In this document: positions 8,906 through 63,319 of the stretch, piece after piece | Numbering within the stretch: the first letter of the stretch is position 1 | How the letters are laid out: every line of letters starts with the position of its first letter | Assembly: GCA_963837465.1 (NCBI GenBank) | Contig: CAWINB010000004.1 | Coordinates: 266,853-330,852, forward strand | Direction: 5' to 3' | Source: Candidatus Doudnabacteria bacterium | GTDB lineage: Bacteria > Patescibacteriota > Doudnabacteria > UBA920 | Length of the DNA: 64,000 nucleotides | Translations under genes and position numbers: made by a program | Notes under the pieces: model-generated | The model's database searches: none | What the model was told of the DNA's origin: nothing | Seen by the model: the letters and a program-made list of their open reading frames with translations, nothing else

Positions 8906-8945
8906 GTTGGAATTTTCCGCCGGAGGCGGATCCGCCTCCGGCGGA
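8906..8945. repeat. GGATCC-centred perfect palindrome, copy a (ttttCCGCCGGAGGCGGATCCGCCTCCGGCGGaaa)
   Basis: 28-bp perfect palindrome with ttttcc/ggaaa flanks. The same element recurs at 12343, 35046 and 62629. Confidence 0.85.
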
Positions 8946-9102
8946 AAGATTTAGGATTTATGATTTGAAGATTTCCGTTTTCGCCAGGAATTCGCAGGAC
9001 AAGCCTTGCGCCATTGAAGATTTAGGATTTGCAAACCACCGCATAATTTTAGCCGATTATGCTAAAGTAGTAAACCCCGCGGCAAATCCGCGCTCGTATT
9101 TT

Positions 9103-9753
9103 CTACAGCTTAACCAGCAAGAGCTGGGCTTCGCCGTTGTTTGGACAGCCATCATTATCTATTCCCTCATTAAATAAGTCCTGTTCAACAGACGGAGACA
9201 GGGTAAAGCCGCTGCCGGATTCTATGCCGAGGTAAATTCCGGCTGGCACGTTACAGCCGTTGCGGGTCGTTACGGTGTCCCAGTAGTTATAATCGTATTC
9301 GCCTCCCCAAGGAGTAGTTAAGGGCCATTGGGCAATATAAGGGCCGTCGCCGTTGCCCGAAACTTGGCTCATCCAGTTGGCTGGAACATATGATGGGTAA
9401 GGGTTGGTGTTGGTGTCGCAGTTTATCCAAACGCCGCAGACGCAGGAAGGCTGGTTGGCTGCAACATTGCAATCCTGGGTGGGATTGGCGGTGTTGTATG
9501 GCAAAGGCTTGGAAAGTCCCGGGTCCCAGCCGCGGTTAACATCGGGCGGATAAAAGCCGTTCTCGTTGTAATACAACTCCAAAGCTATCTGAAGTTGCTT
9601 GATGGTGGCCTGTGCCGTTACATCGCGGGCTTTTTCCCTCTCGTTGGACAGGGCTACAATAATTACGGAAGCCAGCAGCCCGATAATCGCGATAACTACA
9701 AGAAGCTCTATCAGGGTGAATCCTTGTTTTGTATTTTTTGTTTTAAAATTCAT
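9103..9753 (-). CDS. Type IV pilin / pseudopilin with prepilin N-terminal methylation motif
   Basis: KQGFTLIELLVVIAIIGLLASVII is the class III signal. The C-terminal region is Cys-rich. The start is placed at MNFKTKN. Confidence 0.8.
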   Translation of the reverse strand: MNFKTKNTKQGFTLIELLVVIAIIGLLASVIIVALSNEREKARDVTAQATIKQLQIALELYYNENGFYPPDVNRGWDPGLSKPLPYNTANPTQDCNVAANQPSCVCGVWINCDTNTNPYPSYVPANWMSQVSGNGDGPYIAQWPLTTPWGGEYDYNYWDTVTTRNGCNVPAGIYLGIESGSGFTLSPSVEQDLFNEGIDNDGCPNNGEAQLLLVKL

Positions 9754-9837
9754 CGCAAAACGCCGTTGTTTTTTTATTTCTTCCATGGAAATTTAGCCAT
9801 GGTATTATTATACCTTGTTTTTTGCTAAAATAATTAT

Positions 9838-10308
9838 ATGTTTAAATTAAAAATTATCGCTTTGGGTAAATTCAAGGAAAAGGCTTACAGGGAACTGGAA
9901 GCGGAGTTTTTAAAGCGCCTGTCCCCTTTTGCGAAAATTAAAGTTGTGGAAATCGCCGAGGAAGCTTATCGCAAGAATGATGATATTGAACGCGTTAAGC
10001 AAAAAGAGGCGGAAAAAATTATAAAACAATTGCCGGAGAATGGAGTAGTTATGCTGCTTGAGGAAAAAGGCACTCCCCGCAACTCTCTTGAATTCGCCCA
10101 GTTTTTGGAAAGAATCGGCTCTCTGGGAAAAGAACTGGTATTTGTAATCGGCAGCGGCGTTGGCTTGCATGAATCGCTAAAACGATATTCCAATTATTCC
10201 GTTTCGCTCTCTCCACTGACATTTCCACACAACATGGCCAGGGTGATTTTGGAAGAGCAACTTTACCGGGCTTGTACGATTTTGGCGCGTAAGGAATACC
10301 ATAAATAG
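9838..10308 (+). CDS. rlmH: 23S rRNA (pseudouridine1915-N3)-methyltransferase RlmH (SPOUT)
   Basis: 156 aa. The YbeA/RlmH pattern is present: the ...LLEEKG...VFVIGSGVGL... motif. Confidence 0.8.
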   Translation: MFKLKIIALGKFKEKAYRELEAEFLKRLSPFAKIKVVEIAEEAYRKNDDIERVKQKEAEKIIKQLPENGVVMLLEEKGTPRNSLEFAQFLERIGSLGKELVFVIGSGVGLHESLKRYSNYSVSLSPLTFPHNMARVILEEQLYRACTILARKEYHK

Positions 10309-10325
10309 GATTTAAGCTAGAGGTG

Positions 10326-11720
10326 TCAGGGTTTAGGCAAATCCCCTTTTTGGGGATTTTTTAGTTCGGCCGCTATCATAGCTAAAATAAACCACAGTAG
10401 CAACTGAGTTTGGTCCAGGGTGTAAAAGTAGTGGTCAAATTGCATTAGGGCGAGAAAAGAAATAAGGATGGCGAGGAGTGACGAGTAACGGGTAACGATT
10501 GACGAGTCTGGTTCCGATGTTAACCTTTTTGTAAGTAGCCATAGGTGCTGTAAAAATATCCAAAGCAGGATTAAGGCTGCCGGGATGCCTATTTCCGCGG
10601 CGGCGATTATAAAGTAATTGTGTACCGGCTGTTTTTCCCAGAGTTGGAGGGTTTTTCCGGAATATTGTTCCATATGAAGCAGGCTCTCCCCTAGCCCAAT
10701 CCCAAAAATGGGATTTTTTAATGCCATTTTTACCCCGGTAACATCGTAAAGCTTTCTGTTAACGGTAAATGCGTCGGAAAACGTAGCCCGTGTCATTATG
10801 TAGGGCCTAAAAATTAAAAATGACGCCAGTAAGAAGGTTAGTGTCATTATTATGGGGATCAAAACCCTATTTGTCTTTACAGCTACTGGATTTTTCTTTA
10901 TACGTGACCAAAATATCAGGCCAAAGAAAATTATTAGCCCAAAAGCTAAAGCCACGTAGGCTCCCCTTGAAAAGGTTACCGTTAGAGCCAAAATGTTCAA
11001 AAATAACAAAATATAGTAAATAATCCTAGATTTTAGCGTATTTGCTGTTAAGATAAGGTCTAGAATTACAAAAATTCCTGCCACAAGCAAGGCTGAAAGT
11101 GCGTTTGGATGTGGAAATGTGCCATAAGCGCGAATATGTGATGTTTCACCTGAAACAATTTTAGCAATTCCTACTATATTTAAGCCAATATGCTCTTCTC
11201 CAAGTTTATATAGCCCAATTGATTTTTGGGTTATAAATTGTATTAAGGCAATTATTGCTTCCAAGCCGCAAAGCCAGGCAAAAAGCTTGTAAATTTGGGT
11301 TTTTGGCTCAAATTCCTTAATAATTACCACAAATGTTCCATATGCAACAATTAATTCTACCCACCTTATAAACAAATAAGCATTTAGCCTTGTATTTAAG
11401 CTAAAATGTACCAAAAAACCTAGAAAAACCGCAAAAATAAGCCATTTTCCTAATTTTAGAGCATCCCAAAACTCTCTGGGATGCGTAAAAAGTACCAAAA
11501 CAAAAGTGATAAATATTAAAATATCGCTTAAATATAGGGAAAAAGATGTAAAATCTGAATATTCCCCTATTAAATAAGCCTCTTTTGTTAAAAAAACATG
11601 GCGAACAGGGAAGAAAATGCTTATTATTAGCAACATCAGAGCCGTTTTTAAATAAATTTGACTATTTTTTATATTTATGATATAATTTAATATTATGAAA
11701 AATTGTGCCCGTGAAATCAA
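10326..11720 (-). CDS. O-antigen ligase (Wzy_C) family polytopic membrane protein
   Basis: About 12 hydrophobic helices and the TFSRGAYVALAFGLIIF motif typical of the O-antigen ligase/polymerase family. An alternative internal start near 11639 is possible. Confidence 0.55.
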   Translation of the reverse strand: MISRAQFFIILNYIINIKNSQIYLKTALMLLIISIFFPVRHVFLTKEAYLIGEYSDFTSFSLYLSDILIFITFVLVLFTHPREFWDALKLGKWLIFAVFLGFLVHFSLNTRLNAYLFIRWVELIVAYGTFVVIIKEFEPKTQIYKLFAWLCGLEAIIALIQFITQKSIGLYKLGEEHIGLNIVGIAKIVSGETSHIRAYGTFPHPNALSALLVAGIFVILDLILTANTLKSRIIYYILLFLNILALTVTFSRGAYVALAFGLIIFFGLIFWSRIKKNPVAVKTNRVLIPIIMTLTFLLASFLIFRPYIMTRATFSDAFTVNRKLYDVTGVKMALKNPIFGIGLGESLLHMEQYSGKTLQLWEKQPVHNYFIIAAAEIGIPAALILLWIFLQHLWLLTKRLTSEPDSSIVTRYSSLLAILISFLALMQFDHYFYTLDQTQLLLWFILAMIAAELKNPQKGDLPKP

Positions 11721-11795
11721 AATTAAAACTTACTAAGACTATTTTAACATAGTTGTTTTTTTGTTATACTTTTCAAAGTGTTGTTTTAAAAATTT

Positions 11796-11871
11796 GCTCT
11801 CGTAGCTCAATGGATTAGAGCAGTAGCGTCCTAAGCTATTGATGTTGGTTCGATTCCAGCCGAGGGCACCA
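11796..11871 (+). tRNA. tRNA-Arg (anticodon CCT), CCA encoded
   Basis: Cloverleaf: acceptor GCUCUCG, D-arm GCUC/GAGC, anticodon loop GUCCUAA, T-arm GUUGG/CCAGC. Confidence 0.8.
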
Positions 11872-11924
11872 CTCACTTCGCTCGTGGCCTGCGGCCGAAA
11901 AAAGTTTGCTATAATTATTTTTTT

Positions 11925-12269
11925 ATGATAGACCCGGATTTAAAAATACAACTGGATCAAATAAATCAAAATTTAGTTGCTATAGAAAAGAACAAGAGCG
12001 GGGGAGTTTGGCGCTCGTTTTTTAACGGAATGTTTGGGGCTTTTGGGTATTTGGTGGGGATTGTCATAGTTGTTATTTTGGCGGGTTGGTTTTTAAATAA
12101 AACGGGTTTAATAATGCCGTTCCAGGAACAGTGGCAAAAGTTCCAGAATTTTATGTACCAGGCGGAAAATACCATGAGCGCGACCCAGCAGCAAAGCCAG
12201 CAGGGGAGCATACAAAACGGACAAGTTTATACTTTGCCCAACGGGCAAAAAGTGCAGGTGGTGCAATAG
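11925..12269 (+). CDS. Hypothetical small membrane protein with Gln-rich tail
   Basis: One transmembrane helix (FGYLVGIVIVVILAGWFL). No recognisable domain. Confidence 0.4.
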   Translation: MIDPDLKIQLDQINQNLVAIEKNKSGGVWRSFFNGMFGAFGYLVGIVIVVILAGWFLNKTGLIMPFQEQWQKFQNFMYQAENTMSATQQQSQQGSIQNGQVYTLPNGQKVQVVQ

Positions 12270-12342
12270 CCCTTGAAAAGTTCGGTGAAAGTGTGTAAAA
12301 TTATTCGGTGGTTTATAAATCTCGCATCTTCAATCACAAATC

Positions 12343-12378
12343 TTTCCGCCAAGGGCGGATCCGCCTTTGGCGGAAAAT
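12343..12378. repeat. GGATCC-centred palindrome, copy b (imperfect)
   Basis: tttccGCCAAGGGCGGATCCGCCTTTGGCggaaa, immediately upstream of tRNA-Ala(GGC). It is flanked by aaatcctaaat. Confidence 0.7.
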
Positions 12379-12392
12379 CCTAAATTTAATAC

Positions 12393-12466
12393 GGGCCTGT
12401 AGTATAATGGTAATACGGGACTATGGCATAGTTCAGTCGGGGGTCCGATTCCCCCCAGGTCCACCA
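12393..12466 (+). tRNA. tRNA-Ala (anticodon GGC), CCA encoded
   Basis: Acceptor GGGCCUG with G3:U70, anticodon loop AUGGCAU. The 3' half is identical to the Ala-CGC gene. Confidence 0.8.
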
Positions 12467-13929
12467 AAAGAAACTCTCTGGCGATTAGCCACCGCCTTAA
12501 AATCATCTTTCCAAATAAACACAATACTTTTATCACCATTTTCAGTCTTCCACTCAGTGGTTTCCACTAAAGACTTAATAAGCTGACGCTTTTCTTCAGG
12601 GGTTCCTTTCCGATACGTCTGAGTAGGCCTTTTAAGCATTTTTCCAAGCCCGATAATATAATCCATTACATCACTGTCAGCCCGTTCTAAAGCCATTCTG
12701 CGTTCACATAAATCTTGTTCCTTATTAAGTAGTTCAGAATTTTTTACCTTAAATTCATTTTCGGTAATAGTGTTATTCAGACATAGCGTCAGTAGGGCGC
12801 TTTTTTCGTTTTTAAGCTTAGCCGTTTCCAGGTCAACATTTTGGATCTGATTTTTTTGGTCATTTTTTAAATCTTCACGGAATGCTTGGACGGCTTTTAA
12901 AAACTGTGCGGCTTCTTTGTCATCAAATTCCAGCAATTGCAATTGTTTTGCGAACTCATTTTCTACCCATTCCTCTCTAATGTTACACTTACAATCCAAA
13001 TTCCTGCAGGCATAGTAGCGGTATTTATGATGCGAGGAAATGGAACGCAAGGGCTTACCGCAAACACGGCATTTAAGCAGGCCGGAAAACTGGTAAACGA
13101 ACTTTCGGTGGTGCTTGTAACTTTTGTCATCTAAAATTTCCTGCACTTGGTCAAACAATTTTTTGCTTATCAGGGCTTTATGGCTACCTTTTTTTAGCCC
13201 TCCTTTAAACCTGAAAAATCCGTAATAAAAAGGATTGCGTAAAATTTTATACAAAGCCTTGGAGGGCAAAACCTTTGACGGACGTTTCGTAGTAGCCTTA
13301 GTTTTTAGCCCCATATCGGTCAATTTTTTACGCAATTCCTCTATGCTGGTATCGCCATTGGAAAAAATTTCAAACGCCCTGCAAACCATTCGTCCGTAAA
13401 TTGGGTCAGGCTCTTTGTTGCCCCTGCCGACTGAACAGTAGCCGAGCGGGGGAGACATAGGTGATCTTCCATCTTCAACCATGCCATTAATGCCCTTGTG
13501 AATTTCTTGTTTAAGGTTATGCAGATAATACTTTGCTATACCAAATGAAATAGCTGAAAAACCCCAATTAGACTGAGTGCTATTTAGGTTATCTGCAACA
13601 AAATGAATTTCAAACCCTTCTAAAACTAAATCATCACAAACCGCAGCATCATGAAAATTTCTGGCAAATCTATCCAACTTATGCAGGATTAAACCTTTCG
13701 GCTTATAATGCCGCATGTCATTTATCATTTGGTTGAATATTGGACGCTTGTTGTCTTTTGCACTTTGAACTTCTATATATGGTTTGGAGTTTAGCTGAAA
13801 ATTGTTGCGCTTTGCGTATTCCCTAATCTGCCGTTCTTGTTCATCCAAAGAGGCTCCCTCGCTCTGCTCCTCGCTGGAGACACGGACGTAAAAGTAGAAG
13901 AGGCCGTTATGATTATTTTTTTCTGTCAT
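12433..13929 (-). CDS. Large serine recombinase (resolvase catalytic domain + recombinase domain + zinc ribbon)
   Basis: N-terminal YVRVSSEEQ..SLDEQ resolvase motif and a Cys cluster (CRVCGKPL..CRNLDCKC). The C-terminal codons run into the tRNA-Ala 3' end. Confidence 0.85.
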   Translation of the reverse strand: MTEKNNHNGLFYFYVRVSSEEQSEGASLDEQERQIREYAKRNNFQLNSKPYIEVQSAKDNKRPIFNQMINDMRHYKPKGLILHKLDRFARNFHDAAVCDDLVLEGFEIHFVADNLNSTQSNWGFSAISFGIAKYYLHNLKQEIHKGINGMVEDGRSPMSPPLGYCSVGRGNKEPDPIYGRMVCRAFEIFSNGDTSIEELRKKLTDMGLKTKATTKRPSKVLPSKALYKILRNPFYYGFFRFKGGLKKGSHKALISKKLFDQVQEILDDKSYKHHRKFVYQFSGLLKCRVCGKPLRSISSHHKYRYYACRNLDCKCNIREEWVENEFAKQLQLLEFDDKEAAQFLKAVQAFREDLKNDQKNQIQNVDLETAKLKNEKSALLTLCLNNTITENEFKVKNSELLNKEQDLCERRMALERADSDVMDYIIGLGKMLKRPTQTYRKGTPEEKRQLIKSLVETTEWKTENGDKSIVFIWKDDFKAVANRQRVSFGGPGGNRTPD

Positions 13930-19554: not shown

Positions 19555-21000
19555 ATGACCTTTGATCCTTACAGGCTAATAAAATATCATCTCTATTTGC
19601 TCCAAATGGAGAATTACGAACTGGGACGGTTTTGGCAGCTGCTTTTTGGGCGTGGCTGGTTCCCAAAAAAAGAGCGGAGAAAAAACTTAGTTTGGACAGG
19701 CAAAGCGGTACTGCTTTTTATTTTGGCTGAGATTTTTATTTTGGCCGCGGCTCTTGTGTTGCTGCTCAAAGGGTTTTATACGCCCTATGCTTTGTGGTGG
19801 CAAAAAGCCTTTACGTTTTTGGTTGTAGTTTACATTTTGGATTTTTTCACCCCTGTTTTTTTAACCGCTGCGGTTTTAATTTTATGGCCGTTTGATTTTA
19901 CGGCCAAGCAGATAATTGTCGGACGGGCCAAATCAAAAATCAAAAATCAAAAATCAAAAATCAAAATTATCGGTATCGCGGGAAGCTACGGCAAGACTAC
20001 GATGAAGGAAGTGTTGAAAGAGGTTTTGGGTTCAAAGTTCAAGGTTTTAGCCGCTCCTGATAGTATCAATACACCTGTGGGCATTGCGCGGTGGATTTCA
20101 GATAAAGTTGAGGCTTCCGCGGAAATATTAATAGTGGAAATGGGGGAGCATTACAGGGGTGATATCAGGGAGATTTGCGGTATTGCAAAACCGGATATCG
20201 CGGTTGTGACCGGAATTAACCAATCGCATTTGGAGCGTTTTAAGACGATGGAAAATTTAACGGCTACAATTTTTGAAATAGTTTCCTGCGCCGGCCCGGG
20301 CGCCAAAATCCTGGTCAACGGCGATGATAAAAACGTAACGGCGGGTTATAAAAAGTTTGCTTCGCCGGACCGCGAAGTTACGGAGTATCAAGCGTCAAAT
20401 ATCAAACATCCGGCATTCAATGCGGAAAAGTTGGCCTGGGATTTTGAGCTGGACGGAGTTGGCAGAACATCGGTGGATTTATTGGGCGGATACGCGCTGG
20501 GCAACATTGACGCGGCGGCAAAAATCTCGCGGGAACTTGGAATGACGGGCGAGCAAATAAAAGCAGGCATCGCAAAAATTAAGCCCGTTGAACATCGTCT
20601 CCAGCCGCTTAAGGGAGCGGGCGATGTCTTAATAATAGACGACGCTTATAACGGTAATCCCGACGGCGCGGCCGAAGCCATAAAAGTTTTGTCGCGTTTT
20701 TCAGGCAGGCGAAAAGTTTATATTACGCCGGGGCTGGTGGAAATGGGTTCCGAATCGGCGGATATCCATAGGGCCATAGGGAGGCAGCTGGCGGAAGTTG
20801 CGGATGTTGTGGTATTAATTAAGAACAGTGTGACACCGTGGATAGAAGAGGGTGTTAAGGCGGGTAACAGGAAGCCGGAAGCCGGAAGCCGTATTCTGTG
20901 GTTTGCTACCGCGCAAGAGGCGCATTCATCTTTGAGAAATATTTTAAAGCCCGGGGATGTGGTGGTGTTTCAGAATGACTGGGGAGACAACTATTTATAA
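19555..21000 (+). CDS. murF: MurF-like Mur ligase (UDP-MurNAc-tripeptide--D-Ala-D-Ala ligase family) with an unusual N-terminal 3-TM extension
   Basis: P-loop GIAGSYGKTT and the DSINTPVGIA (GNxNNxIGxP-like) motif. A Mur ligase C-terminal domain follows. The first roughly 130 aa are hydrophobic helices, not the usual MurF N-domain. Confidence 0.65.
   Translation: MTFDPYRLIKYHLYLLQMENYELGRFWQLLFGRGWFPKKERRKNLVWTGKAVLLFILAEIFILAAALVLLLKGFYTPYALWWQKAFTFLVVVYILDFFTPVFLTAAVLILWPFDFTAKQIIVGRAKSKIKNQKSKIKIIGIAGSYGKTTMKEVLKEVLGSKFKVLAAPDSINTPVGIARWISDKVEASAEILIVEMGEHYRGDIREICGIAKPDIAVVTGINQSHLERFKTMENLTATIFEIVSCAGPGAKILVNGDDKNVTAGYKKFASPDREVTEYQASNIKHPAFNAEKLAWDFELDGVGRTSVDLLGGYALGNIDAAAKISRELGMTGEQIKAGIAKIKPVEHRLQPLKGAGDVLIIDDAYNGNPDGAAEAIKVLSRFSGRRKVYITPGLVEMGSESADIHRAIGRQLAEVADVVVLIKNSVTPWIEEGVKAGNRKPEAGSRILWFATAQEAHSSLRNILKPGDVVVFQNDWGDNYL
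19931..19966. repeat. Heptanucleotide tandem repeat (tcaaaaa x5) inside the murF-like coding region
   Basis: Period-7 repeat seen directly. It encodes KSKIKNQKSKIKI at the junction of the membrane domain and the ligase domain. Confidence 0.85.
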
Positions 21001-23512: not shown

Positions 23513-24259
23513 ATGATTGCCATGAACCTGAGATATGAAAAACAAAAACTTAAGCAAGGTTATAATTATGTAATCGGCTGTGACGAAGTCGGGCGCGGTT
23601 GTTTGGCCGGGCCTGTTGTGGCTGCGGCAGTGATTTTTAATCACTCAAGTGGACCAAAATGGCTTTCCCAAATTAATGACAGCAAAAAACTTTCGCCGGA
23701 AAAGCGTGAGTATCTTTGCGAAAAAATTAAATTACACGCCTTGTGGAGCATAGGCGAGGTTTCATCCGAAGTTGTAGATGAAATAAATATCCATAATGCC
23801 AGTTTGCTGGCTATAAAAAAGGCGATTGAGGGACTGATGAGTGTGCCCATCCCGGAATTTTTCAGGGCCTTATCTGAAAAATATCCGGGATCCAGTTCGT
23901 TGCTTAGTTCTGGATCCCTGCTCCATCCTTCACATAAAGCTTCGGCGGACACGGTCGGGGGCCGGGGTGGGACACGCGAATTATTCCTGTCCGTTGACGG
24001 AAAATTCAAAGTCCCGGGCTTGGACATGGACCAGGAAGCAATTATAGAAGGCGACGGTAAAATTTTATCCATAGCCGCGGCTTCTATTGTAGCAAAAGTT
24101 TATCGAGATGATTTGATGAAAAATTTTGACAACCAATACTCCGGTTATGAATTTGCCAGGCATAAAGGCTACGCCACCGAATATCATCGTTCTATGGTTC
24201 TAAAGCACGGACTGTCTCCAATTCATCGCGTAACTTTTTGCCAAAATCTTTTGGTATAA
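23513..24259 (+). CDS. rnhB: Ribonuclease HII carrying an in-frame insertion of about 40 aa
   Basis: GCDEVGRGCLAGPVVAAAV active-site region. An insertion between PEFF and LSVDGKF is encoded by a palindrome-containing segment at 23864-23987. Confidence 0.8.
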   Translation: MIAMNLRYEKQKLKQGYNYVIGCDEVGRGCLAGPVVAAAVIFNHSSGPKWLSQINDSKKLSPEKREYLCEKIKLHALWSIGEVSSEVVDEINIHNASLLAIKKAIEGLMSVPIPEFFRALSEKYPGSSSLLSSGSLLHPSHKASADTVGGRGGTRELFLSVDGKFKVPGLDMDQEAIIEGDGKILSIAAASIVAKVYRDDLMKNFDNQYSGYEFARHKGYATEYHRSMVLKHGLSPIHRVTFCQNLLV

Positions 24260-24369
24260 TAAAGTGCGGCCGCATTTTATTATACCAACATCAAACAGCG
24301 CAAGCACGCCGCTGACAAACAGCGGTTTTTGATTTATACTATGAGGAGCCACGTTGCTCAAACCCACAC

Positions 24370-32720: not shown

Positions 32721-34977
32721 ATGGCTAAGCGGAAAAAAATACAGGATAAAGAAGGCAGAAAAAAAACCAAACCTGCTCTTAATCTTTCGTACGAGACCAA
32801 GCGCGGGATTATGGTGGTGGTGTTCGTGGTTTTGGCGCTGGTTGCGGTTTTAAGCATCGCCGGGGTTGCGGGGAGTTTGGGCCAGGAGATGCTATGGGGA
32901 TTGTCGCTGGTGTTTGGGCTTATGACTTACGTGGTCCCCTTGATTTTGCTCAGCGTGGCTGTGTCCATATATAAGCAGGATTTGGAAAGACAGGGCCGCG
33001 GCCACAATTTTTACTGGCGCATTTATTTGGGCGCCCTGATTTTGGCAGGCAGTATTGCCGGTTTAGTTCACATTTTTTATTTAAACAGCCAAACCGACGC
33101 GTTTGCCCTAGCCGCCCAGGGAAGAGGCGGCGGCTATTTGGGGGCGGTTTTTTCGTCCCTGCTTTATGTCCACTTGGGTTTTTGGGCCGGTTGTTTGATT
33201 TTATTGGCTTTGGTTTTAATAGGTATGCTGGTGACGTTTGATGTGCCGCTTGGGTCGTTGTGGCCGAAGTCGGAAGAGAAAGAAAATATAGAAGACAGAA
33301 TAAAGAAGACAGAAGACAGTGAATCGGTGGCGGATGTTAAGCTCGCGCCGTTAAAAATCAATGCCATGGGCAAAGAGGGTTTTATTGAGGAAAAGGTTAT
33401 GGATAAAAATCCCAAACTCGCGGATAATAACCTTAAAGAAGATGTTAAATTAAAAACCCAGACCATCCAAACCAAAGCCATCAACACTCCCAAAAACCAG
33501 GCGGTGCAATTGGAGGCTATGACCGTGGAAGACCGCAAAGACTGGAAACTGCCTAATTTTGATATTTTAGACGATAATCATACCGAAGTGGACAGCGGCA
33601 ACATAGAAGTCAACGTGGCCATAATTAAAAAAACCCTGTCCGACTTTGGCATAGAAGTGGAAATGGGCGAGGTTAACGTTGGGCCGACTGTTACGCAATA
33701 CACCCTGCGTCCCGCTACCGGCGTAAAATTGTCGCAAATCGCCGGCCTGCAAAATGATCTGGCCCTGGCTTTGGCCGCTTCCAGCCTGCGTATGGAACTG
33801 CCCATTCCGGGCAAGGCTTTAGTCGGCATAGAAGTCCCGAATAAATCCACGGCCATTGTCCGTTTGCGGGAAGTTATGCAGACCGAAGGTTTTGTTAGCC
33901 ATAAAAGCAAACTGGCCCTGGCTTTGGGCCGCGATGTGGCCGGACATGCTATGGTGGTGGATTTGGCTAAAATGCCGCATTTGCTTATTGCCGGCGCCAC
34001 GGGCACGGGTAAAAGCGTAGCCATTAACAGCCTGTTTATTTCTTTGCTTTACCGCAATACGCCACAGGATGTAAAGTTTATAGTCATTGATCCAAAGCGG
34101 GTGGAAATGACTCCTTACAACGGCATCCCGCATTTGCTGACACCGGTTGTCATTGACCACGAAAAAGCCGTTAACGCGCTAAAGTGGGCGGTGGCCGAAA
34201 TGGACAGGCGCTACAAACTTTTATCCGAAGCCGGCAAGCGCAATATTTCGGAATATAACGAGCACGCGCCCCTGCCAATGCCTTATATCGTGATTTTGGT
34301 GGATGAGCTGGCGGATTTGATGGCCGTGGCTCAAGCCGATGTGGAAGCCACAATCGTACGCTTGTCGCAAATGGCGCTGCGCCATAGGCATCCATTTGGT
34401 TTTAGCCACCCAGCGGCCGTCGGTTGAGATTATCACCGGGCTGATTAAAGCCAACATTACTTCGCGCGTAGCATTTGCCGTGGCTTCGCAAATAGACAGC
34501 CGTACCATTTTGGATTCCTCGGGAGCGGAAAAATTGCTGGGCAACGGCGACATGCTGTATACATCCGCTGAATTTAACAAACCCAAGCGCGTGCAGGGCG
34601 CCTACATTGGCGAAAAGGAAGTTAAAAAAGTGGTGGATTTTTTTAAGGCGCAAACCGGAGCTGTTATTTACAACGAGGAAATTGTGGAAAAACCCAAAAG
34701 GCCCTTGGGTATTCCGGGTATGGAAAGCGAAGACGGCGGCGATAATGACCCGCTTTTGGCGGAAGCCACGGAGGAAGTCAAACGGGCCGGCAAAGCGTCA
34801 GCCTCTTTACTGCAAAGACGTCTGCGCGTAGGCTACGCCCGGGCCGCCCGACTGTTGGATATTATGGAACAAAAAGGCATAATCGGTCCCGGCGAAGGCG
34901 CCAAGCCGCGGGAAGTTTACGGCGTGATTCCGCCGGATGAAAAAGCGGAGTACGGGATAGAAGAGGGGATGCGGTAA
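32721..34977 (+). CDS. ftsK: DNA translocase FtsK/SpoIIIE, split by an apparent frameshift near 34375-34395
   Basis: N-terminal transmembrane helices, Walker A AGATGTGKS, Walker B ILVDELADL. Frame 3 stops at 34427 after RLSQMA. Frame 1 continues with GIHLVLATQRPSVEIITGLIKANI and the C-terminal gamma domain. Confidence 0.8.
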
Positions 34978-35045
34978 TTTCAAATTTCAAATATCAAAAC
35001 AAAAGCCGGCCGACCCAATATCAAAATTAAGGCATCGCGTCCGCA

Positions 35046-35086
35046 TTTGTAATTTTCCGCCGGAGGTGGTTCCGCCTTTGGCGGAG
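35046..35086. repeat. GGATCC-family palindrome, copy c (degenerate, centre ggttcc)
   Basis: ttttCCGCCGGAGGTGGTTCCGCCTTTGGCGGag, flanked by inverted atttcaaat/atttgaaat motifs. Confidence 0.65.
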
Positions 35087-44676: not shown

Positions 44677-44686
44677 GTATCAATTT

Positions 44687-44718
44687 AAAACAGTCCTTAT
44701 TAATAAGGACTGTTTTAA
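44687..44718 (+). terminator. Rho-independent terminator
   Basis: aaaacagtccttatt/aataaggactgtttt. Confidence 0.7.
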
Positions 44719-44769
44719 ACAATTTCTGCCTGGTTATTTTTACATCCTGCCAAAGGCGAAGTTTTATAT

Positions 44770-46088: not shown

Positions 46089-46157
46089 TGAATTATGAGT
46101 TACGGGGAACTTAATGCCCCCTAATTCATAATTCCAAATTTATAATTCGTAAAATAC

Positions 46158-55081: not shown

Positions 55082-57709
55082 ATGTACCTGAAACGCCTGG
55101 AAATCCACGGATTTAAATCTTTCGCCCAAAAAACCACTATGGAGTTCAGTAGCGGCGTTATTGCTATTGTTGGGCCCAACGGTAGCGGTAAGTCCAATGT
55201 GGCGGATTCCCTAAGGTGGGTTTTGGGCGAACAGAGCCCCAAAATAATCCGCGGCAAAAAAAGCGACGATGTAATTTTCGCCGGCAGTGATAAAAAGACC
55301 CGGCAGGGTTTTGCCGAAGTCACCGCGACTTTTGATAACAGCGATAACCGCATTCCGGTGGATGCCTCCGAAGTCAGCATCGGCCGCAGGATTGACAGGA
55401 GCGGTGAAAGCGAATATTTGCTCAACGGCAATAAAGTAAGGCTTTTGGATATTGTGGATTTGGTTTTAAAAAGCAATATTGGAACTTCCAGGTACACTGT
55501 TATCGGCCAGGGCACCATTGACCAGATGATTTTGCAGGGACCGGGCGAAATTAAAAATTTGCTGGACGAGGCCAGCGGAGTAAAAAGCTATTACCTCAAG
55601 CGCGAAAAAACTTTAAGACGTTTGGAGCAGACAGCGCAAAATTTAATGCGCGCCGAAGACCTTATCGCGGAAATAGAACCGAGGCTGAAATCTTTAAGGA
55701 GACAGGCAAAAAAAATGGAAGCGCGGGCCGAAGTTGAACAGGAGCTGAAAATTTACCAGCGGGAATTTTTTAGCGGCGCTTTTTGGCAGCTTAGGCACGG
55801 CTTGGATGGCATTTTAACGCAGCTGCAGTATACCGGCCGGCAAAAGAAAGTTTTGGAAGACCGGTCCGCGGTTTTGCGCGGGCAGGCGGAAGTTTTGGAA
55901 TCTGGAGTTCAGCAGGGCGGGGGGAAGTTTGACGCGGTTCAGGAAGAAATGGCTAAACTGCAAAGCCAAAAGAATAAGCTGTTGGAGGATTTAAGCTTGG
56001 TCCGCGGCAAAATGCAAAGCCAAAAGACCGCGGTTTCCGGCGACGCCCAAAGCCTGCAGGTTGAGGCGCACACAGCCGCCGGAAAAATTGAAGAAGTAAC
56101 GGCCAAAATCCTGCAAATTCAGGCAGAACATCAGCAAGCAGAAAAAGGTTTTGTAGCCCAGTTTCAGTTTCTGGAAGCGGTCAACAAAAAGCTTGATGAG
56201 TTGTCGCAAAAGTTAAGCCAGCCGACGCAAATTGACTGGAGCGTTTTGGGTAGAGAGCTGGAGGTTTTGGAAAATATCTGGAATGATTTTTATAACAATC
56301 TTCCCGCGGCCCAAAATCTGGACGAAATAAAATTAAAAGCCCGGGGTTTAAACAGCGGGTTTTTAAAGTTTAAGACCGCGGCCAAAGCGGCGGTTTTGGA
56401 CCCCCAGGCCGGAATGCTTATAATAAAACAGGAATTGGACGGTTTGTTTAAGCAAAAGGAGCAGTTAAGCGGCGCCGTTAACGCGGCACAGCTTGATATG
56501 AGCAAAAACAAAATCGCGCTGGATTTTTCCCAAAGGGAGCTTTCGGGCCTGCGGCAGCAAAAATTCCACCTGGATTTGGAACTGAAAAAAGCCCAAAGCA
56601 GTTCGCCGGATGAATTTTGGAATGATCTTTTAAGCGAGGAGCAAAAAATAAAAATTTTGGTTGACGCTTTGGGCGCGGAAATAATCAAAGTGGAAAATAT
56701 TTTAAGGGAATATTACGCTTCGGAAGACGCCAGACAGAAAATCCTGCGTGAAACCGAAAATTCATTCAGGGATTTGCAGGACCAGCTTTCCGGGGTCAAA
56801 GACCGGGAATCGTTAATTAATATAGAAAAGGCCAAAATTGACACCCAAATGCAGGTCTTGGCCGAGGAAGTAAAAAGAATTTTGGGCGAGCGGGAGTGGC
56901 AGGGTTTTGCCGACATTAAAATGGAAAACCAAACCGCGGATTTGGAAGCCAAAATTATGCGGCTGAAAAACCAGCTGGATACCATCGGCGGAATGGATGA
57001 CTTAACCTTAAAGGAGTATCAGGAAACCGAGGCGCGGCATACCAATTTGAGCGCTCAGGTTAACGATTTAAAGCAGGGGGTCACGGACTTGCAGCAAATT
57101 ATAGACGAATTGGACGGCCACATAAAGCAAAGGTTTAACGAGTCTTTCCATAAGATTAACGAAAAATTTGAATTTTATTTCCGGGTGTTATTCAACGGCG
57201 GGCGGGCGTACTTAAGCCCGGTAAAAAATGAGGAAGACGAGTCGATTTCTGCCGAATCCACCGAAGACGCATCGGAGAGCGCGGTCAATGAATCGGAAAC
57301 ATTAAGACCCGAAGAAAAATTATTACAAAAATACGGCAAGGCTTCTTCCGGTATTACTGGCATAGATATTAAAGCCACGCCGCCGGGCAAAAAGCTGGCC
57401 AGCATCCAGGCGCTGAGCGGCGGCGAACGGGCTCTTACTTCCATAGCCCTGTTGTGCGCTTTGCTGTCCTGCTTTCCCTCTCCTTTTGTGGTCCTAGACG
57501 AAGTTGACGCGGCTTTGGACGACGCCAACACCATACGTTTTGGCCAAATCCTGGGAACTCTTGCCCACCAAACCCAATTTGTTACCATTACCCACAACCG
57601 CGAAACCATGTCCCAGGCCAATATTTTGTATGGGGTAACTATGGGGGATGATGGGGTATCTAAGCTGTTGTCGGTTAAACTTGAGCAGGCGAAGGAGTTT
57701 GCTAAATAA
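55082..57709 (+). CDS. smc: SMC-family chromosome segregation ATPase (short, 875 aa)
   Basis: N-terminal Walker A GPNGSGKSN. C-terminal signature LSGGERALTSIAL with D-loop VLDEVDAALD. Long coiled coils. Confidence 0.8.
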   Translation: MYLKRLEIHGFKSFAQKTTMEFSSGVIAIVGPNGSGKSNVADSLRWVLGEQSPKIIRGKKSDDVIFAGSDKKTRQGFAEVTATFDNSDNRIPVDASEVSIGRRIDRSGESEYLLNGNKVRLLDIVDLVLKSNIGTSRYTVIGQGTIDQMILQGPGEIKNLLDEASGVKSYYLKREKTLRRLEQTAQNLMRAEDLIAEIEPRLKSLRRQAKKMEARAEVEQELKIYQREFFSGAFWQLRHGLDGILTQLQYTGRQKKVLEDRSAVLRGQAEVLESGVQQGGGKFDAVQEEMAKLQSQKNKLLEDLSLVRGKMQSQKTAVSGDAQSLQVEAHTAAGKIEEVTAKILQIQAEHQQAEKGFVAQFQFLEAVNKKLDELSQKLSQPTQIDWSVLGRELEVLENIWNDFYNNLPAAQNLDEIKLKARGLNSGFLKFKTAAKAAVLDPQAGMLIIKQELDGLFKQKEQLSGAVNAAQLDMSKNKIALDFSQRELSGLRQQKFHLDLELKKAQSSSPDEFWNDLLSEEQKIKILVDALGAEIIKVENILREYYASEDARQKILRETENSFRDLQDQLSGVKDRESLINIEKAKIDTQMQVLAEEVKRILGEREWQGFADIKMENQTADLEAKIMRLKNQLDTIGGMDDLTLKEYQETEARHTNLSAQVNDLKQGVTDLQQIIDELDGHIKQRFNESFHKINEKFEFYFRVLFNGGRAYLSPVKNEEDESISAESTEDASESAVNESETLRPEEKLLQKYGKASSGITGIDIKATPPGKKLASIQALSGGERALTSIALLCALLSCFPSPFVVLDEVDAALDDANTIRFGQILGTLAHQTQFVTITHNRETMSQANILYGVTMGDDGVSKLLSVKLEQAKEFAK

Positions 57710-57810
57710 ATTTCAAATATCAAATTACAAATTTCAAATGTCCGGTGACGGTGTTTGAAATTTTACTGATTGGATTTCATTTGAAATTTGGTATTTGTAA
57801 TTTGATATTT
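57708..57810. repeat. Long AT-rich inverted repeat (about 33-bp arms) between smc and dedA, built from tttcaaat/caaattacaaat units
   Basis: aaatttcaaatatcaaattacaaatttcaaatg ... catttgaaatttggtatttgtaatttgatattt. It probably acts as a bidirectional terminator. Confidence 0.6.
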
Positions 57811-59392: not shown

Positions 59393-59552
59393 ATTGACAC
59401 GCATTTTTGCATCAATTATAATATCCCTAAGATAGCACACGCTAGAAGTAAACCGCGTAAAAGAGACGGGGAGATAAATTCAGCTCCACTGATATATTCT
59501 CTAACGGGGTAAAGGTCGTAGCAGAATTACGCTATCCAGAAATTGCATTTAT

Positions 59553-59945
59553 ATGGAGCAAGATCAGACATTTGTGGAGTTTGTTGTAAAAGCGTTGGTT
59601 GACCATCCCGAGGATGTAAAAACCGAGCGCGTCGTGGATGAAATGGGAGTATTGATTACTCTTCACTTAAACCCCGAAGATATGGGCCAGGTTATTGGCC
59701 GTATGGGCCAGACTGCCAAAGCTATCCGCACTCTTTTAAGAGTCGTTGGCGCCAAGCACAAAGCCCGCGTCAACTTAAAAATTTACGAACCCGAAGGTTC
59801 CCACAGGGGACCGCGCCGCGAAGGCGGTATGGGAATGGGCCACGGGCCGAGCATGGGCCACCAGGGCGGCATGAACGGTTCCATGGGCGGCGGCCAAATG
59901 GGCCAAAGCGTGAGCGATGATTCCATTGACGAGTTTAAACTCTAG
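59553..59945 (+). CDS. KH-domain RNA-binding protein (YlqC-like) with Gly/Met-rich tail
   Basis: VIGRMGQTAKAIRTLL is a KH GXXG loop. This is the conserved position between rpsP and trmD. Confidence 0.75.
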   Translation: MEQDQTFVEFVVKALVDHPEDVKTERVVDEMGVLITLHLNPEDMGQVIGRMGQTAKAIRTLLRVVGAKHKARVNLKIYEPEGSHRGPRREGGMGMGHGPSMGHQGGMNGSMGGGQMGQSVSDDSIDEFKL

Positions 59946-60090
59946 GTTGCGGAAATACGCGGAATTTAACGCGGAAAGACGCTGAATCTAAAATAAATAA
60001 CCCTGCTCGCAAGCCACGTAAAATAAATCTACGTGGCAAGAGTGGGGTTATTTTGTTAAGATGTAATTGATAACGATAACGTGCCACAAG

Positions 60091-60131
60091 GGTTGCCCTT
60101 GTGTTGCACAAGGGCAACCCTTGTGAAGAAG
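60091..60131. repeat. 41-nt perfect inverted repeat overlapping the trmD start
   Basis: cacaagggttgcccttgtg ttg cacaagggcaacccttgtg. Each half is itself nearly palindromic. Confidence 0.8.
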
Positions 60132-60842
60132 AAATTGACCATAAAAATAATAACTTTATTTCCAAAATTCATAGAAAATTTTTTGGAAAATTTTGGCATT
60201 GTCAAAAGGGCGGTCGGTTTGGGGCTTTTGGATATCCGGCCGGTAAATTTAAGGAGTTTTGGTTTAGGCGATCGTCAAGTCGTGGATGACAGGCCTTATG
60301 GCGGGGGTGTGGGGATGGTATTACGTGCTGACGTATTGTTTAAAGCAATGCAAGGGGTAAGGGCTAAGGGGTTAGGGGTTAGAAAGAAACAGAAAGTGAT
60401 TTTGCTTACGCCGCAGGGAAAAAAGTTTGAGCAGAAAGACGCTCATAGGTTGGCAAAATATGACGAGTTAATTTTTGTCTGCGGCAGGTACGAAGGTTTT
60501 GACGAACGCATTAGGCAATTCGCGGACGAGGAAATTTCCATTGGCGATTATATTTTAATGGGCGGCGAACTGCCGGCTTTGGTAATAAGCGAAGCGGTTA
60601 TGCGGCTTAGGCCCGGAATTTTGGGCAAAGATGAATCGTCCGTGGCCGAATCTTTTTCGGAAAATTTGCTTGAGCACCCGCAGTATACAAAGCCGTATGA
60701 GTGGAAAGTAAAAAGTAAAAAGTTAAAAGTTCCCAAAGTTTTACTGACCGGACATCATAAAAATATAGAAGAATTTAGGAATAAAGAATCATATAAGCGC
60801 ACAAAAAAACGTCGGCCGGATTTAATTAAAAATCAAAAATAG
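60123..60842 (+). CDS. trmD: tRNA (guanine37-N1)-methyltransferase TrmD
   Basis: LTIKIITLFPKF N-terminus and the SPOUT fold (...DDRPYGGG...GGELPALV). GTG at 60123 is preferred over the ORF-track start inside the palindrome. Confidence 0.85.
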   Translation: MKKKLTIKIITLFPKFIENFLENFGIVKRAVGLGLLDIRPVNLRSFGLGDRQVVDDRPYGGGVGMVLRADVLFKAMQGVRAKGLGVRKKQKVILLTPQGKKFEQKDAHRLAKYDELIFVCGRYEGFDERIRQFADEEISIGDYILMGGELPALVISEAVMRLRPGILGKDESSVAESFSENLLEHPQYTKPYEWKVKSKKLKVPKVLLTGHHKNIEEFRNKESYKRTKKRRPDLIKNQK

Positions 60843-60845
60843 ATT

Positions 60846-61499
60846 ATGGACCAAACTCAGGACAGGGTGATATATTTAACTTTTGATGACGGGCCGCTTG
60901 AGCCCCACACTTCTAAAATTTTGGATATACTAAAGCAGTACAATGCCAAGGCTGCATTCTTTTTTTGCGGCAAAAATATTGAAAGAAACGCCGGAAGTGT
61001 AGCAAGGGTTGTTTCAGAGGGTCATTCCCTTGGTAACCATACGTACTCGCACGATTTTTGGAAAGTAATTACCGGAAACCTGCTTGGCGAAATTGAGCAG
61101 ACGGAACTGCTAATAAAAAATTATGCGAATATTACATCATTGCTTTACCGTTCTCCCTGGGGTATAACGCTTCCCCGTCTCAGGGCTAATTTATTGGCCG
61201 CAGGTTTTGCCGTTTGTTCCTGGAATATTACGGCTTTTGATTGGTGGCAACCATCCGCGGAATTTATAGCGAGGCACGTTATCGCGAGAGCTTTTCCCGG
61301 GGCCGTGGTGTTGCTCCATGACGGCAACAGAACATTGCCGGGGAACCGGGAAAATACCGTAAAAGCTTTGCCGGTTATTATTAAAGCCCTGCGGGAACAG
61401 GGATATATGTTTAAGCCTCTAAAGCCGGACTGGCATAATCAGCGTGTTTTTTTGAAGGATTTTCTGACAGATATTATCACTGTCTTTAAAAACTATTGA
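60846..61499 (+). CDS. Polysaccharide deacetylase (NodB-domain) family protein
   Basis: YLTFDDGP and the later HTYSH / LLHD motifs. Confidence 0.8.
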   Translation: MDQTQDRVIYLTFDDGPLEPHTSKILDILKQYNAKAAFFFCGKNIERNAGSVARVVSEGHSLGNHTYSHDFWKVITGNLLGEIEQTELLIKNYANITSLLYRSPWGITLPRLRANLLAAGFAVCSWNITAFDWWQPSAEFIARHVIARAFPGAVVLLHDGNRTLPGNRENTVKALPVIIKALREQGYMFKPLKPDWHNQRVFLKDFLTDIITVFKNY

Positions 61500-61511
61500 T
61501 TATCTAAAGGT

Positions 61512-62261
61512 ATGGAAATTAAAAAGTTATACTACTTCTCGATAATTGTTGCCGCCCTTAACGAAGAAAAATATATTGCGGATTGCATTTCAGCATTGAA
61601 GGGCCAAAATTATCGGGGTGAGTTTGATATAATTATTGTCGACAACGGCAGTAATGATAATACCCGCAAAATTGCCCAAAAATTGGGAGTAAGAGTTATC
61701 CCCGAACCTCAAAGAGGCGTCTCTTACGCTTTAATTACCGGTTGCCGCGAAGCAAAAGGGGAAATACTCGCTTTCACAGATGCCGATACCAGGCCACGGG
61801 CCGATTGGCTTTCTAAATTAAACGGGATTTTTAATTCCGGGGAAAATGTAGCAGGAGGCGGCGGAGGTCTTTTTTATTACGATGGCCCAAAATGGGCAAA
61901 TATTCTTTTTCAGGATTTTTTAATCAGGTTTTATGTTAAGTATTTTCAGAAACGACATCAAGGCCTGGCAGGGTGTAATATGGCAGTCCGCGCGGATGTC
62001 TACAAAAAAATAGGAGGGTTTGCTCCTGGATTTAATTGGGGTCAGGACTGGCAAATGGGGAAAAGAGTCAGCCGGTTGGGTAATGTTATTTTTGATCCGG
62101 ATATTGTAGTTAATACGTCTTTCCGCAGGTTTAACGGCCGATATAATAGCCCACTGTTAAAAAATATTTACGCGATTAAAGAATTTTTGGTAGCGGGGGT
62201 CAGGATGCTGCCTTTAATGTATTTGGGGGCAAAGCTTAAACCGCAAAAACCTGTGAGATAA
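61512..62261 (+). CDS. GT2-family glycosyltransferase
   Basis: SIIVAALNEEKYI...IIIVDNGSNDNT..FTDAD (DXD). Confidence 0.8.
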   Translation: MEIKKLYYFSIIVAALNEEKYIADCISALKGQNYRGEFDIIIVDNGSNDNTRKIAQKLGVRVIPEPQRGVSYALITGCREAKGEILAFTDADTRPRADWLSKLNGIFNSGENVAGGGGGLFYYDGPKWANILFQDFLIRFYVKYFQKRHQGLAGCNMAVRADVYKKIGGFAPGFNWGQDWQMGKRVSRLGNVIFDPDIVVNTSFRRFNGRYNSPLLKNIYAIKEFLVAGVRMLPLMYLGAKLKPQKPVR

Positions 62262-62269
62262 ATAATTTT

Positions 62270-63319
62270 ATGCCTACACATGAATTCATCGTCGAAGCCT
62301 TAAAAACGCGCCTGGATAAATATCTCGCGGAGCAAATAAAAGATATTTCCAGGAGCCGGATTCAGCGCGACATAGAGGGTGGCCTTGTGGAGGTTAACGG
62401 GGAATTGATTACAGAAAGCAAATTTGTAGTCAGGCTGGATGACAAAATAGCTTACAGGCAATCGGCAGACAGCAATCGGCAGACAGGACTTAAGCCTACA
62501 GATACTCCGCTGAGGATTTTATACAATAACCACGGCCTGCTCATTGTAGACAAGCCAGCAGGATTAACGGTTCATCCGGGAGCCGGGTTTAAAGGGGAGA
62601 CTTTGGCCAGCGCGCTTTTGTATCATTTTTCCGCCGGAGGCGGATCCGCCTCCGGCGGAAAAAATATCCACTTAGTCGGCGAGGAGCACCGGCCGGGGAT
62701 TGTGCACAGGCTTGATAAAGATACCAGCGGCGTAATTTTGGTGGCCGCTACCCAGGAAATGTACGAACATTTAAAAAACGCTTTCGCGGAACGCAAAGTA
62801 AAAAAAGAATACATAGCCTTGGTTTCCGGCCGGGTGGAAAAGCCGCACGGGTTTATAGAAGCGCCCATTGGCAAAAGCAAAACAGATTTTAGGAAACAGA
62901 CTGCGAAAAATCCGGTGGAGGGCAAGGAGGCGGTAACTGAGTATAAAGTTCTGGAGTATTTAAATCAGAAAAATCGGAAAATCGGAGAATCGGAAAGCTC
63001 GGATCCGACTTCCGATGTATCTGATTTTTCCGATAAATCCGGTGTTGACACTTACACCCTAATTCTGGTAAAATTGCATACAGGCAGAACGCATCAAATT
63101 CGGGTGCATATGGCATTTATTGGACATCCGCTTATGGGCGACAGCTTATACGGCGGGAAAAGAGGTTTTTTAAAAAATCTTACAAGACAATTCCTGCACG
63201 CTAAAAAAATAGAAGTTCAGTTGCCGGACGATTCCTGGATAGAAGCAGAGTCAGAATTTCCGGATGATCTTAAAAAAGTTTTGATTGGGTTAAACAGTAA
63301 AGTTGTTAAACAATTATAA
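62270..63319 (+). CDS. RluA-family (RluD-like) pseudouridine synthase carrying two in-frame insertions
   Basis: S4-like N-terminus and catalytic HRLDKDTSG. Inserts at aa about 119-133 (palindrome copy d) and aa about 232-262 (Ser/Asp-rich). Confidence 0.8.
   Translation: MPTHEFIVEALKTRLDKYLAEQIKDISRSRIQRDIEGGLVEVNGELITESKFVVRLDDKIAYRQSADSNRQTGLKPTDTPLRILYNNHGLLIVDKPAGLTVHPGAGFKGETLASALLYHFSAGGGSASGGKNIHLVGEEHRPGIVHRLDKDTSGVILVAATQEMYEHLKNAFAERKVKKEYIALVSGRVEKPHGFIEAPIGKSKTDFRKQTAKNPVEGKEAVTEYKVLEYLNQKNRKIGESESSDPTSDVSDFSDKSGVDTYTLILVKLHTGRTHQIRVHMAFIGHPLMGDSLYGGKRGFLKNLTRQFLHAKKIEVQLPDDSWIEAESEFPDDLKKVLIGLNSKVVKQL
62629..62662. repeat. GGATCC-centred perfect palindrome, copy d, inside a coding sequence
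   Basis: ttttCCGCCGGAGGCGGATCCGCCTCCGGCGGaaaa, encoding FSAGGGSASGGK in frame. Confidence 0.85.

Follow-up and report, generated by a model that had tools for sequence, protein, structure and literature searches.

The window described here is a 64-kb stretch of a Candidatus Doudnabacteria genome, and named close homologs of its RluD-like protein bear the label Doudnabacteria. It carries four copies of a short palindromic element, TCCGCC-NNN-GGCGGA-TCCGCC-NNN-GGCGGA, two of them perfect, and one lone 15-nt unit; none would be expected by chance. One copy lies in frame within a gene for a pseudouridine synthase, and the other three are intergenic. The copies, the host gene and the two neighbouring tRNA genes are as follows.

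8830..8903, minus strand: tRNA-Ala(CGC), the downstream neighbour of the 8914 copy
8914..8947, no strand: perfect 34-bp palindrome with the 30-bp element at 8916-8945, loops GGA/TCC, TT and AA flanks
12343..12376, no strand: copy with intact stems and loops AAG/TTT, element at 12345-12374
12393..12466, plus strand: tRNA-Ala(GGC), the downstream neighbour of the 12343 copy
35056..35085, no strand: degenerate copy with two stem changes (GGTGGTT for GGCGGAT), loops GGA/TTT
62270..63319, plus strand: host gene, an RluD/RluA-family 23S rRNA pseudouridine synthase with S4 and PseudoU_synth_2 domains
62630..62659, plus strand: in-frame 30-bp element in this RluD-like gene, encoding SAGGGSASGG between Phe120 and Lys131
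63341..63355, no strand: lone 15-nt unit TCCGCCCAAGGCGGA in the spacer from rluD to rplS, with AT-rich heptamer arrays on both sides

An earlier note on the window had reported four copies, two perfect and two degenerate, and all of them are located where it put them. The lone unit at 63341-63355, missing from its list, is kept at the syntenic position in another locus (L121). Within the window, the exact 28-mer occurs twice against 0.00 expected (100 shuffles), and the 15-nt unit TCCGCCNNNGGCGGA occurs eight times against 0.16 expected, a tally that includes the lone unit. The palindromes at 8914 and 62626 hold identical 30-bp elements. Together with its own T and A runs, the copy at 62630 forms a perfect 38-bp palindrome at 62626-62663. 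The length of 38 bp first reported holds for this palindrome, while the inserted unit is 30 bp and the T and A runs are its target flanks.

The element consists of two 15-nt units, each with a 6-bp stem and a 3-nt loop. As single strands, the window copies have predicted energies of -10 to -23 kcal/mol for DNA; for sense-strand RNA the range is -25 to -34 kcal/mol, and the folding z-scores run from -3.9 to -7.3. For instance, the DNA hairpin of the 8914 copy has -21.3 kcal/mol and a z-score of -6.9. No stop codon occurs in any frame of the element. In an Rfam scan of the whole window only tRNAs reached the gathering score, and the palindrome had no curated covariance-model match.

The 8914 copy is intergenic and lies 10 nt upstream of the 5' end of tRNA-Ala(CGC); the 12343 copy lies 16 nt upstream of the 5' end of tRNA-Ala(GGC). 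The two copies had been said to abut these genes, which is correct, but they are not two independent insertions. Both sites belong to one paralogous, duplicated module in inverted orientation (8826-9050 and 12296-12470), made up of AAAATTATNCGGTGGTTT, the palindrome and the tRNA. The copy at 35056 had been placed upstream of a RodZ-like gene, and that gene indeed has an HTH_25 domain and a weak RodZ_C match; the open reading frame (ORF) before the copy has an FtsK-gamma domain. The fourth copy lies in ORF 62270-63319, whose protein reads ...YHF-SAGGGSASGG-KNIHLVGE.

The element is found far beyond this genome. A relaxed pattern, CCGCCNNNGGCGGATCCGCCNNNGGCGG, was searched in a species-representative genome collection and found at 118 loci at least, with all listed matches in metagenome-assembled genomes (MAGs). 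Among the matches listed, the hosts are mostly Patescibacteria of many classes, and at least 10 are Omnitrophota; hosts in both groups are confirmed by the names of homologs. By record title only, there are also Kiritimatiellae (three contigs, one MAG), Ignavibacteria (two 1.6 Mb contigs), Lentisphaeria, Planctomycetia, Chloroflexota and more. The sites occupy unrelated genomic positions, and the G+C content of the host loci ranges from 30 to 70%. Only two matches occur in 2.9 million viral contigs, so that carriage by phages is nearly nil.

Record titles can mislead. The record of locus L012, a TPA_asm MAG, is titled 'uncultured Gammaproteobacteria'; this title is wrong, as close homologs of its AspS are labelled Patescibacteria/Uhrbacteria. 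Other TPA_asm titles may be equally unreliable. The Kiritimatiellae MAG has a composite repeat about 190 bp long, CATAGGAATTTT-[palindrome]-ACAATCCGTCTTTGTTGTCATTCCGAGCG..., whose left part is the palindrome and which occurs in at least three copies (L006 4570-4760 and 6390-6580; L052 7180-7370).

The anatomy of the element can be read from 127 copies. In most of them the first loop reads RRA; the second reads TNN, usually TYY, and copies with the loops in reverse order are practically lacking. Two loop positions are nearly fixed, the A of the first loop (118/127) and the T of the second (122/127). The element is best described as one asymmetric 15-nt unit, TCCGCC-RRA-GGCGGA, followed by its reverse complement, TCCGCC-TYY-GGCGGA. 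What is conserved is the four GGCGG/CCGCC arms together with the central AGGCGGATCCGCCT. A model of one long hairpin with paired loop positions was rejected: the loops are near-independent, and 27/127 copies are perfect palindromes where 17 would be expected (p about 0.01). The conserved unit is a predicted pair of small hairpins plus the central AGGCGGATCCGCCT.

A longer conserved element was sought, and only a weak enrichment of AAAATC(C) past the A run appeared. Among the loci, no cargo-carrying version turned up in which two single units enclose other DNA. The fetched loci also contain bystander copies, which lie outside the selection made by the search. About half of these have fully intact stems, the rest have one or two changes, and single units are frequent among them.

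Some variants change all four arms together, to CAGCC/GGCTG, CACCC/GGGTG or CGGCC/GGCCG, and have a central AC. Such compensatory-stem variants are found at L120 590-640, L082 2307, L108 43 and 117, and L066 756. In L120, an RluD ortholog, one such variant is an insert nested inside the main element. These compensatory arms point to a putative wider superfamily.

Evidence that the element was inserted comes from orthologs with and without it. Among RluD-like proteins, 93/120 read ...ALLYHF-K-DIHLVGE and 27/120 have an insert between F and K, in line with the in-frame insertion claimed earlier. Most inserts are a full S-A-x-G-G-S-A-x-G-G, while a few consist of one 5-residue unit or of a decayed remnant. 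Another four exceed the full length, and two of these (P0015 and P0102) clearly hold a nested second element in another frame. In nucleotides, empty alleles have CAT TTT|AAG GAT and AAG TTT|AAG GAT. The filled alleles read as DNA (the window, L121 and L120) have CAT TTT [TCC GCC RRA GGC GGA TCC GCC TYY GGC GGA] AAA. The alignment check proposed earlier thus finds palindromic DNA in filled orthologs, and not just a Gly/Ser segment.

The cleanest case is a GH57 gene of Omnitrophota, in which about 7/121 orthologs are filled. Its empty allele, ACC TTC|AAA AAC AAG, becomes GCA TTC [30 bp] AAA AAC AAG with no duplication and no loss. In AspS of Patescibacteria, 2/120 orthologs are filled. Most orthologs of all three genes are without the segment. 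In the alignments, the element is an insertion relative to orthologs, demonstrated in these three genes.

Two junctions are clean: at TTT|AAR and at TTC|AAA, precisely 30 bases are gained and the target site is not duplicated. Going outward from GGCGG, the successive bases at 248 half-sites are A (97%), A (61%; G 21%, C 14%), A (83%) and A (59%). The first flanking A belongs to the element, so the usual target is TT(T/C)|AAA.

Roughly 40% of copies are intragenic, and the intergenic copies lie in AT-rich spacers. Of about 127 copies, 47 lie deep within ORFs of 200 aa or more and are in the self-symmetric frame TCC GCC NNN GGC GGA x2, which reads S-A-x-G-G-S-A-x-G-G. The other two frames have about 3 to 5 copies in real genes, such as those for a class-V aminotransferase and a laccase-like protein. 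With a strict TTT|AAA target, one frame would be excluded, because the empty site would contain TAA, and two would still be allowed. The near-absence of the P-P-x-A-D frame therefore suggests selection at the protein level. The second loop codon specifies Ser in 32 coding copies and Phe or Leu in 11; the corresponding counts for non-coding copies are 72 and 70 (p = 0.008). This bias indicates that the element is probably translated within its host genes.

The hosts are unrelated housekeeping genes. They include DnaG, UvrB, PheT, DnaJ, and AspS-type, CysS and class-I aminoacyl-tRNA synthetases, as well as transketolase, a PolX-type polymerase, HsdR, ArsA, an S41 peptidase, FemAB and GH57. In an AlphaFold model of the window RluD (mean pLDDT, the predicted local confidence score, 82.6), insert residues 121-130 form a coil with a pLDDT of about 54, between helix 112-120 and the HRLD motif. 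Intragenic copies add a flexible S-A-x-G-G-S-A-x-G-G surface loop, and almost only copies in the self-symmetric frame persist. In a Campbellbacteria MAG (L015 4444-6930, minus strand), a PheT-like ORF has two copies of the element and an NlpC/P60 domain between B3_4 and B5.

Copies can be compared within and between genomes. Both loop triplets are shared in 9/24 same-genome pairs (6/18 without the larger Kiritimatiellae repeat), as against 4.95% between genomes. This sharing shows that new copies are made from copies already resident in the same genome.

Filled alleles may also be passed between lineages. A neighbour-joining tree of RluD orthologs has at least 21 changes between the filled and the empty state. 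To read these as at least 21 independent gains or losses was downgraded, as a recombination breakpoint lies exactly at the insert. Downstream of the insert, L119 (empty) matches L120 (filled) at 100% over 650 bp; across the 5' 360 bp the identity is about 90%, and it is locally low just past the insert. This breakpoint implies that allelic exchange moves filled alleles between lineages.

The most probable explanation is that this is a dispersed, non-autonomous, ultra-short (30-bp) palindromic insertion element of a new family, like the Rickettsia palindromic elements (RPE) and the REP/REPIN sequences. It would move as a folded substrate, either a hairpin or a cruciform. The enzyme that handles it might be encoded at another place in the genome and act in trans; the class of this enzyme is put forward with little confidence. 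By analogy with IS200/IS605 and with REP and its REP-associated tyrosine transposase (RAYT), an HUH/Y1-type enzyme would be the closest precedent. The element could have crossed between phyla by gene transfer, and its stems may be kept perfect by arm-to-arm templated correction or by turnover at favoured sites. With no target duplication, a biased target, hairpin-forming ends and mobilisation in trans, such an element is closer to REP-RAYT and IS200/IS605 than to cut-and-paste DDE transposition. The core of the earlier note, which had seen a selfish, REP-like miniature palindrome that tolerates in-frame insertion, is supported by the palindromic DNA of the filled orthologs and by the recurrence of the motif.

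Several observations weigh against a mobile element of this kind. Searches by tblastn with IS200, IS608 and E. coli RAYT found nothing in the window and a single, unrelated IS200 in the 118 loci. A transposase of RAYT type, which the earlier note had proposed to look for in the genome, is not found in the window, and neither is an IS200-type gene. Thirty bases are too short for the guide and cleavage arrangement of IS608. The target rule is not strict, since the AspS insertion lies at ATG|GAG and two Lys codons (6 bp) were lost. Part of the scatter of presence and absence among orthologs is allelic recombination, so the number 21 overstates the independent events. Finally, the stems are conserved at four-fold degenerate sites. 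In AspS (L012 and L126), 59% of four-fold sites differ outside the element and 0/9 inside; in RluD (the window and L121), 67% differ outside and 1/9 inside, at a loop position. Such conservation is as compatible with a selected function as with a selfish element.

A recently transferred patch fails to explain this conservation, since on either side the first flank differences lie no more than four bases from the element. The constancy of the stems may come from selection on DNA or RNA structure, from arm-to-arm templated correction or from repeated replacement at favoured sites.

An unlikely alternative is that the element is a functional nucleic-acid signal under selection, which spread by recruitment rather than by selfish copying. 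Candidates are a site for a conserved dimeric or tetrameric protein, a DNA-uptake-type sequence (the bacteria are probably competent) and an RNA hairpin for transcript stability or processing. A signal would account for stems that are invariant at four-fold sites while flanking four-fold sites are near saturation, and for the same sequence being found across phyla. It would also account for the two tRNA-Ala modules, in which 22/22 stem positions are identical despite differences at 5/6 loop positions. In the 35056 copy, all mismatches are compatible with G-U pairs on the plus (sense) strand, so that the full hairpin is kept solely on the sense RNA (-25.4 kcal/mol on the plus strand compared with -15.1 on the minus strand). 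Every one of the three intergenic window copies lies between co-directional genes, like the REP sequences that stabilise mRNA.

Uptake sequences and protein sites, however, accumulate by substitution and not as clean 30-bp insertions in unrelated genes, and most orthologs fare well without the element. Copies inherited for longer decay, for instance to SAKGGSRSAG or SGGAGSRSAG, which argues against a strong cellular function at every site. Coding copies often have A-C mismatches at loop positions on the sense strand. An intrinsic terminator is ruled out, since on both strands the hairpin is preceded by a T run and followed by an A run, with no U run after it.

It is rather improbable that the element spread with no dedicated enzyme. 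In this alternative, microhomology-guided template switching or end joining would copy an existing palindrome along with its T and A flanks. The replication or repair intermediate would sit at a T-run/A-run junction, and the arms would be kept perfect by template-switch correction of quasi-palindromes. Arm-to-arm templated correction of quasi-palindromes is established in E. coli, reportedly through work by Ripley and by the Lovett laboratory. Nearly all copies are flanked by T and A runs, which makes a microhomology of 3-4 nt possible. Target-site duplication is absent, and the loss of 6 bp at AspS resembles break repair. Loop triplets are inherited within genomes, and the variant families, such as CAGCC/GGCTG, alter all four arms jointly.

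No linked gene was found near the copies either: when 2,403 ORFs from the 118 loci were clustered all against all, no family occurred in more than five loci. Events of this sort are nevertheless rare and would not be expected to amplify one 30-mer across phyla. The pattern is absent from 5,426 E. coli genomes, and among PLSDB plasmids there are two weak partial matches only, both in Streptomyces. It is also left unexplained why this sequence spreads and not other hairpins.

An assembly or library artefact, or a convergent Gly/Ser-rich low-complexity coding sequence, can practically be dismissed: although all listed matches come from MAGs and a few lie at contig ends (L004, L047, L114), a dispersed repeat would be expected to lie at contig ends in any case, independent JGI, ENA, NCBI and Logan assemblies have the same orthologous site filled, with natural variation, frame and codon choice are under protein-level selection, and the codons are identical for every Ser, Ala and Gly, with the same DNA also non-coding and in other frames.

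A bolder form of the preferred explanation is possible but doubtful. In this form, an active mobile 30-bp palindrome would occur across phyla (Patescibacteria, Omnitrophota, probably Ignavibacteria and the Planctomycetes-Verrucomicrobia-Chlamydiae group), would insert without duplication between a T run and an A run by an enzyme or mechanism yet to be described, and would be held constant at the DNA level. Such constancy would imply some role in recognition, for example in uptake, segregation or defence marking. If this were true, the element would be the smallest known transposable unit and a genomic signal across phyla of uncultivated bacteria.

The insertion element can be compared with several known systems. 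A search of the literature, which also covered the literal 12-mer GGCGGATCCGCC, turned up no account of it; the results were solely cloning primers and general papers on REP, on MITEs (miniature transposable elements with inverted repeats) and on organellar palindromes.

Rickettsia palindromic elements. These were reportedly described by Ogata et al. in 2000. They too are palindromes found in frame in many unrelated housekeeping genes, are translated as extra surface segments and have no linked transposase. RPE, however, are about 100-150 bp long, occur in Rickettsia only and are not GC hairpin doublets. The present element is set apart by its length of 30 bp; it also occurs in several phyla and almost solely in one self-symmetric frame. 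RPE are mentioned in PMC10969869 and PMC1779305.

REP and REPIN. Like the present element, these are short (20-40 bp), GC-rich palindromes with many dispersed copies, often as inverted doublets. They are mobilised in trans by a single-copy RAYT (TnpA-REP) gene; with E. coli RAYT as the query, tblastn found none in the 64-kb window or the 118 loci. REP carry a GTAG or CGTC tag at one end (PMC3733652), whereas the flanks here are T and A runs, with no GTAG or CGTC visible in the printed flanks. REP are extragenic, in contrast to the 47 copies well inside long ORFs.

IS200/IS605 and palindrome-associated miniature derivatives. Hairpin ends, sequence-specific insertion and the lack of target-site duplication are shared. 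The left and right ends of IS200/IS605, however, are separate, carry guide sequences and span tens or hundreds of bases. Their target is a fixed short sequence; that of the present element is biased to TT(T/C)|AAA, with ATG|GAG in AspS. No Y1 transposase with the hairpins of the element at its ends was found in the 118 loci, where the single IS200 has different hairpins.

Organellar palindromes. Mitochondrial GC clusters (yeast), double-hairpin elements (Allomyces) and other organellar coding palindromes (PMC2670323, PMC6649704) are likewise very short GC-rich double hairpins in AT-rich genomes, located both in spacers and in frame in genes, and their mobility is likewise inferred. They differ in being organellar and eukaryotic and in having other sequences, and some of them duplicate the target.

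MITEs and uptake sequences. MITEs such as Correia/NEMIS are also non-autonomous, dispersed and sometimes intragenic, with inverted repeats. They are 50-500 bp long and have target-site duplications, unlike the present element, which makes no duplication and consists of two inverted 15-bp units that directly abut. DNA uptake sequences and uptake signal sequences (DUS/USS) are short motifs conserved beyond neutral expectation, with preferred frames in genes and often in inverted pairs. They differ in arising by substitution and biased recombination, not by block insertion.

The element is thus set outside REP by its tag-free ends and intragenic copies, outside MITEs by its shortness and lack of target duplication, and outside RPE by its size. 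Its unusual features are the minimal size, the single preferred reading frame and the presence in more than one phylum. The closest functional analogues are RPE, REP/REPIN doublets, mitochondrial GC clusters and double-hairpin elements.

If the element is what it appears to be, a single 10-residue insert is shared by many essential genes in small-genomed uncultivated bacteria, at least in Patescibacteria and Omnitrophota. This would affect the annotation of genes and proteins, ortholog alignments and phylogenies. It would also affect the assembly of MAGs, because contigs break at a dispersed repeat. The element would be a minimal system for studying how a bare hairpin doublet is copied and inserted. 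Stem conservation and the recombination breakpoints at the insert tie it to gene exchange in organisms whose genetics is only now becoming possible, and it could be a simple marker for transfer between phyla that share a habitat.

The spacers of the window have further features. The 8914 copy lies between a pilin-like gene and tRNA-Ala(CGC), and the 12343 copy between a small ORF and tRNA-Ala(GGC). The two tRNA-Ala modules bracket 3.4 kb with the pilin-like gene, further ORFs and a tRNA-Arg, and the module at 8826-9050 has 57 nt extra. A gene with a LEM-3-like GIY-YIG nuclease domain (8041-8757, minus strand) adjoins the tRNA-Ala and the 8914 palindrome; no relatives of it were found near other copies of the element.

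Spacers in this genome are rich in AT-rich tandem arrays of period 7, which often form inverted pairs on either side of a small GC hairpin. Intergenic arrays lie at 8948-8966, 19930-19966, 34976-34998, 46122-46152, 57708-57810, 60705-60730 and 63356-63382. For example, the pair at 57708/57778 has 33-nt arms with 85% complementarity. The inverted atttcaaat motifs reported earlier do exist, but they belong to these arrays. The array layout of the rluD-rplS spacer is present in five Doudnabacteria, with differing central hairpins. Across the loci, the flanks of intergenic copies are periodic in 32% of cases, compared with 7% for control spacer positions (p = 2e-4, n = 22).

The IS200-type element mentioned above (L068 3340-4010) has its own hairpins, CCACTGG...CCAGTGG and CCACCAGC...GCTGGTGG. 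Its insertion site is a heptamer array of AGTAATT, immediately past a CysS gene with a copy of the palindrome.

The rluD gene of the window contains a second in-frame palindromic module at 62966-63045, with (AAAATCGG)n, a centre of CGGATCCG and inverted repeats of CCGA type. It corresponds to a low-confidence segment of the model (residues 243-256, pLDDT <50), at a position that is length-variable among orthologs. At this position L119 and L120 have (GAGAATCG)3...(TCCGACC)3.

Other strong palindromes of the window lie outside the family. They are located at 24251-24288, 44684-44719 and 60085-60125. One is centred on GCGGCCGC upstream of a tRNA-Ser, one is a perfect 36-bp AT-rich palindrome, and one has perfect 19-nt arms, CACAAGGGTTGCCCTTGTG / CACAAGGGCAACCCTTGTG.

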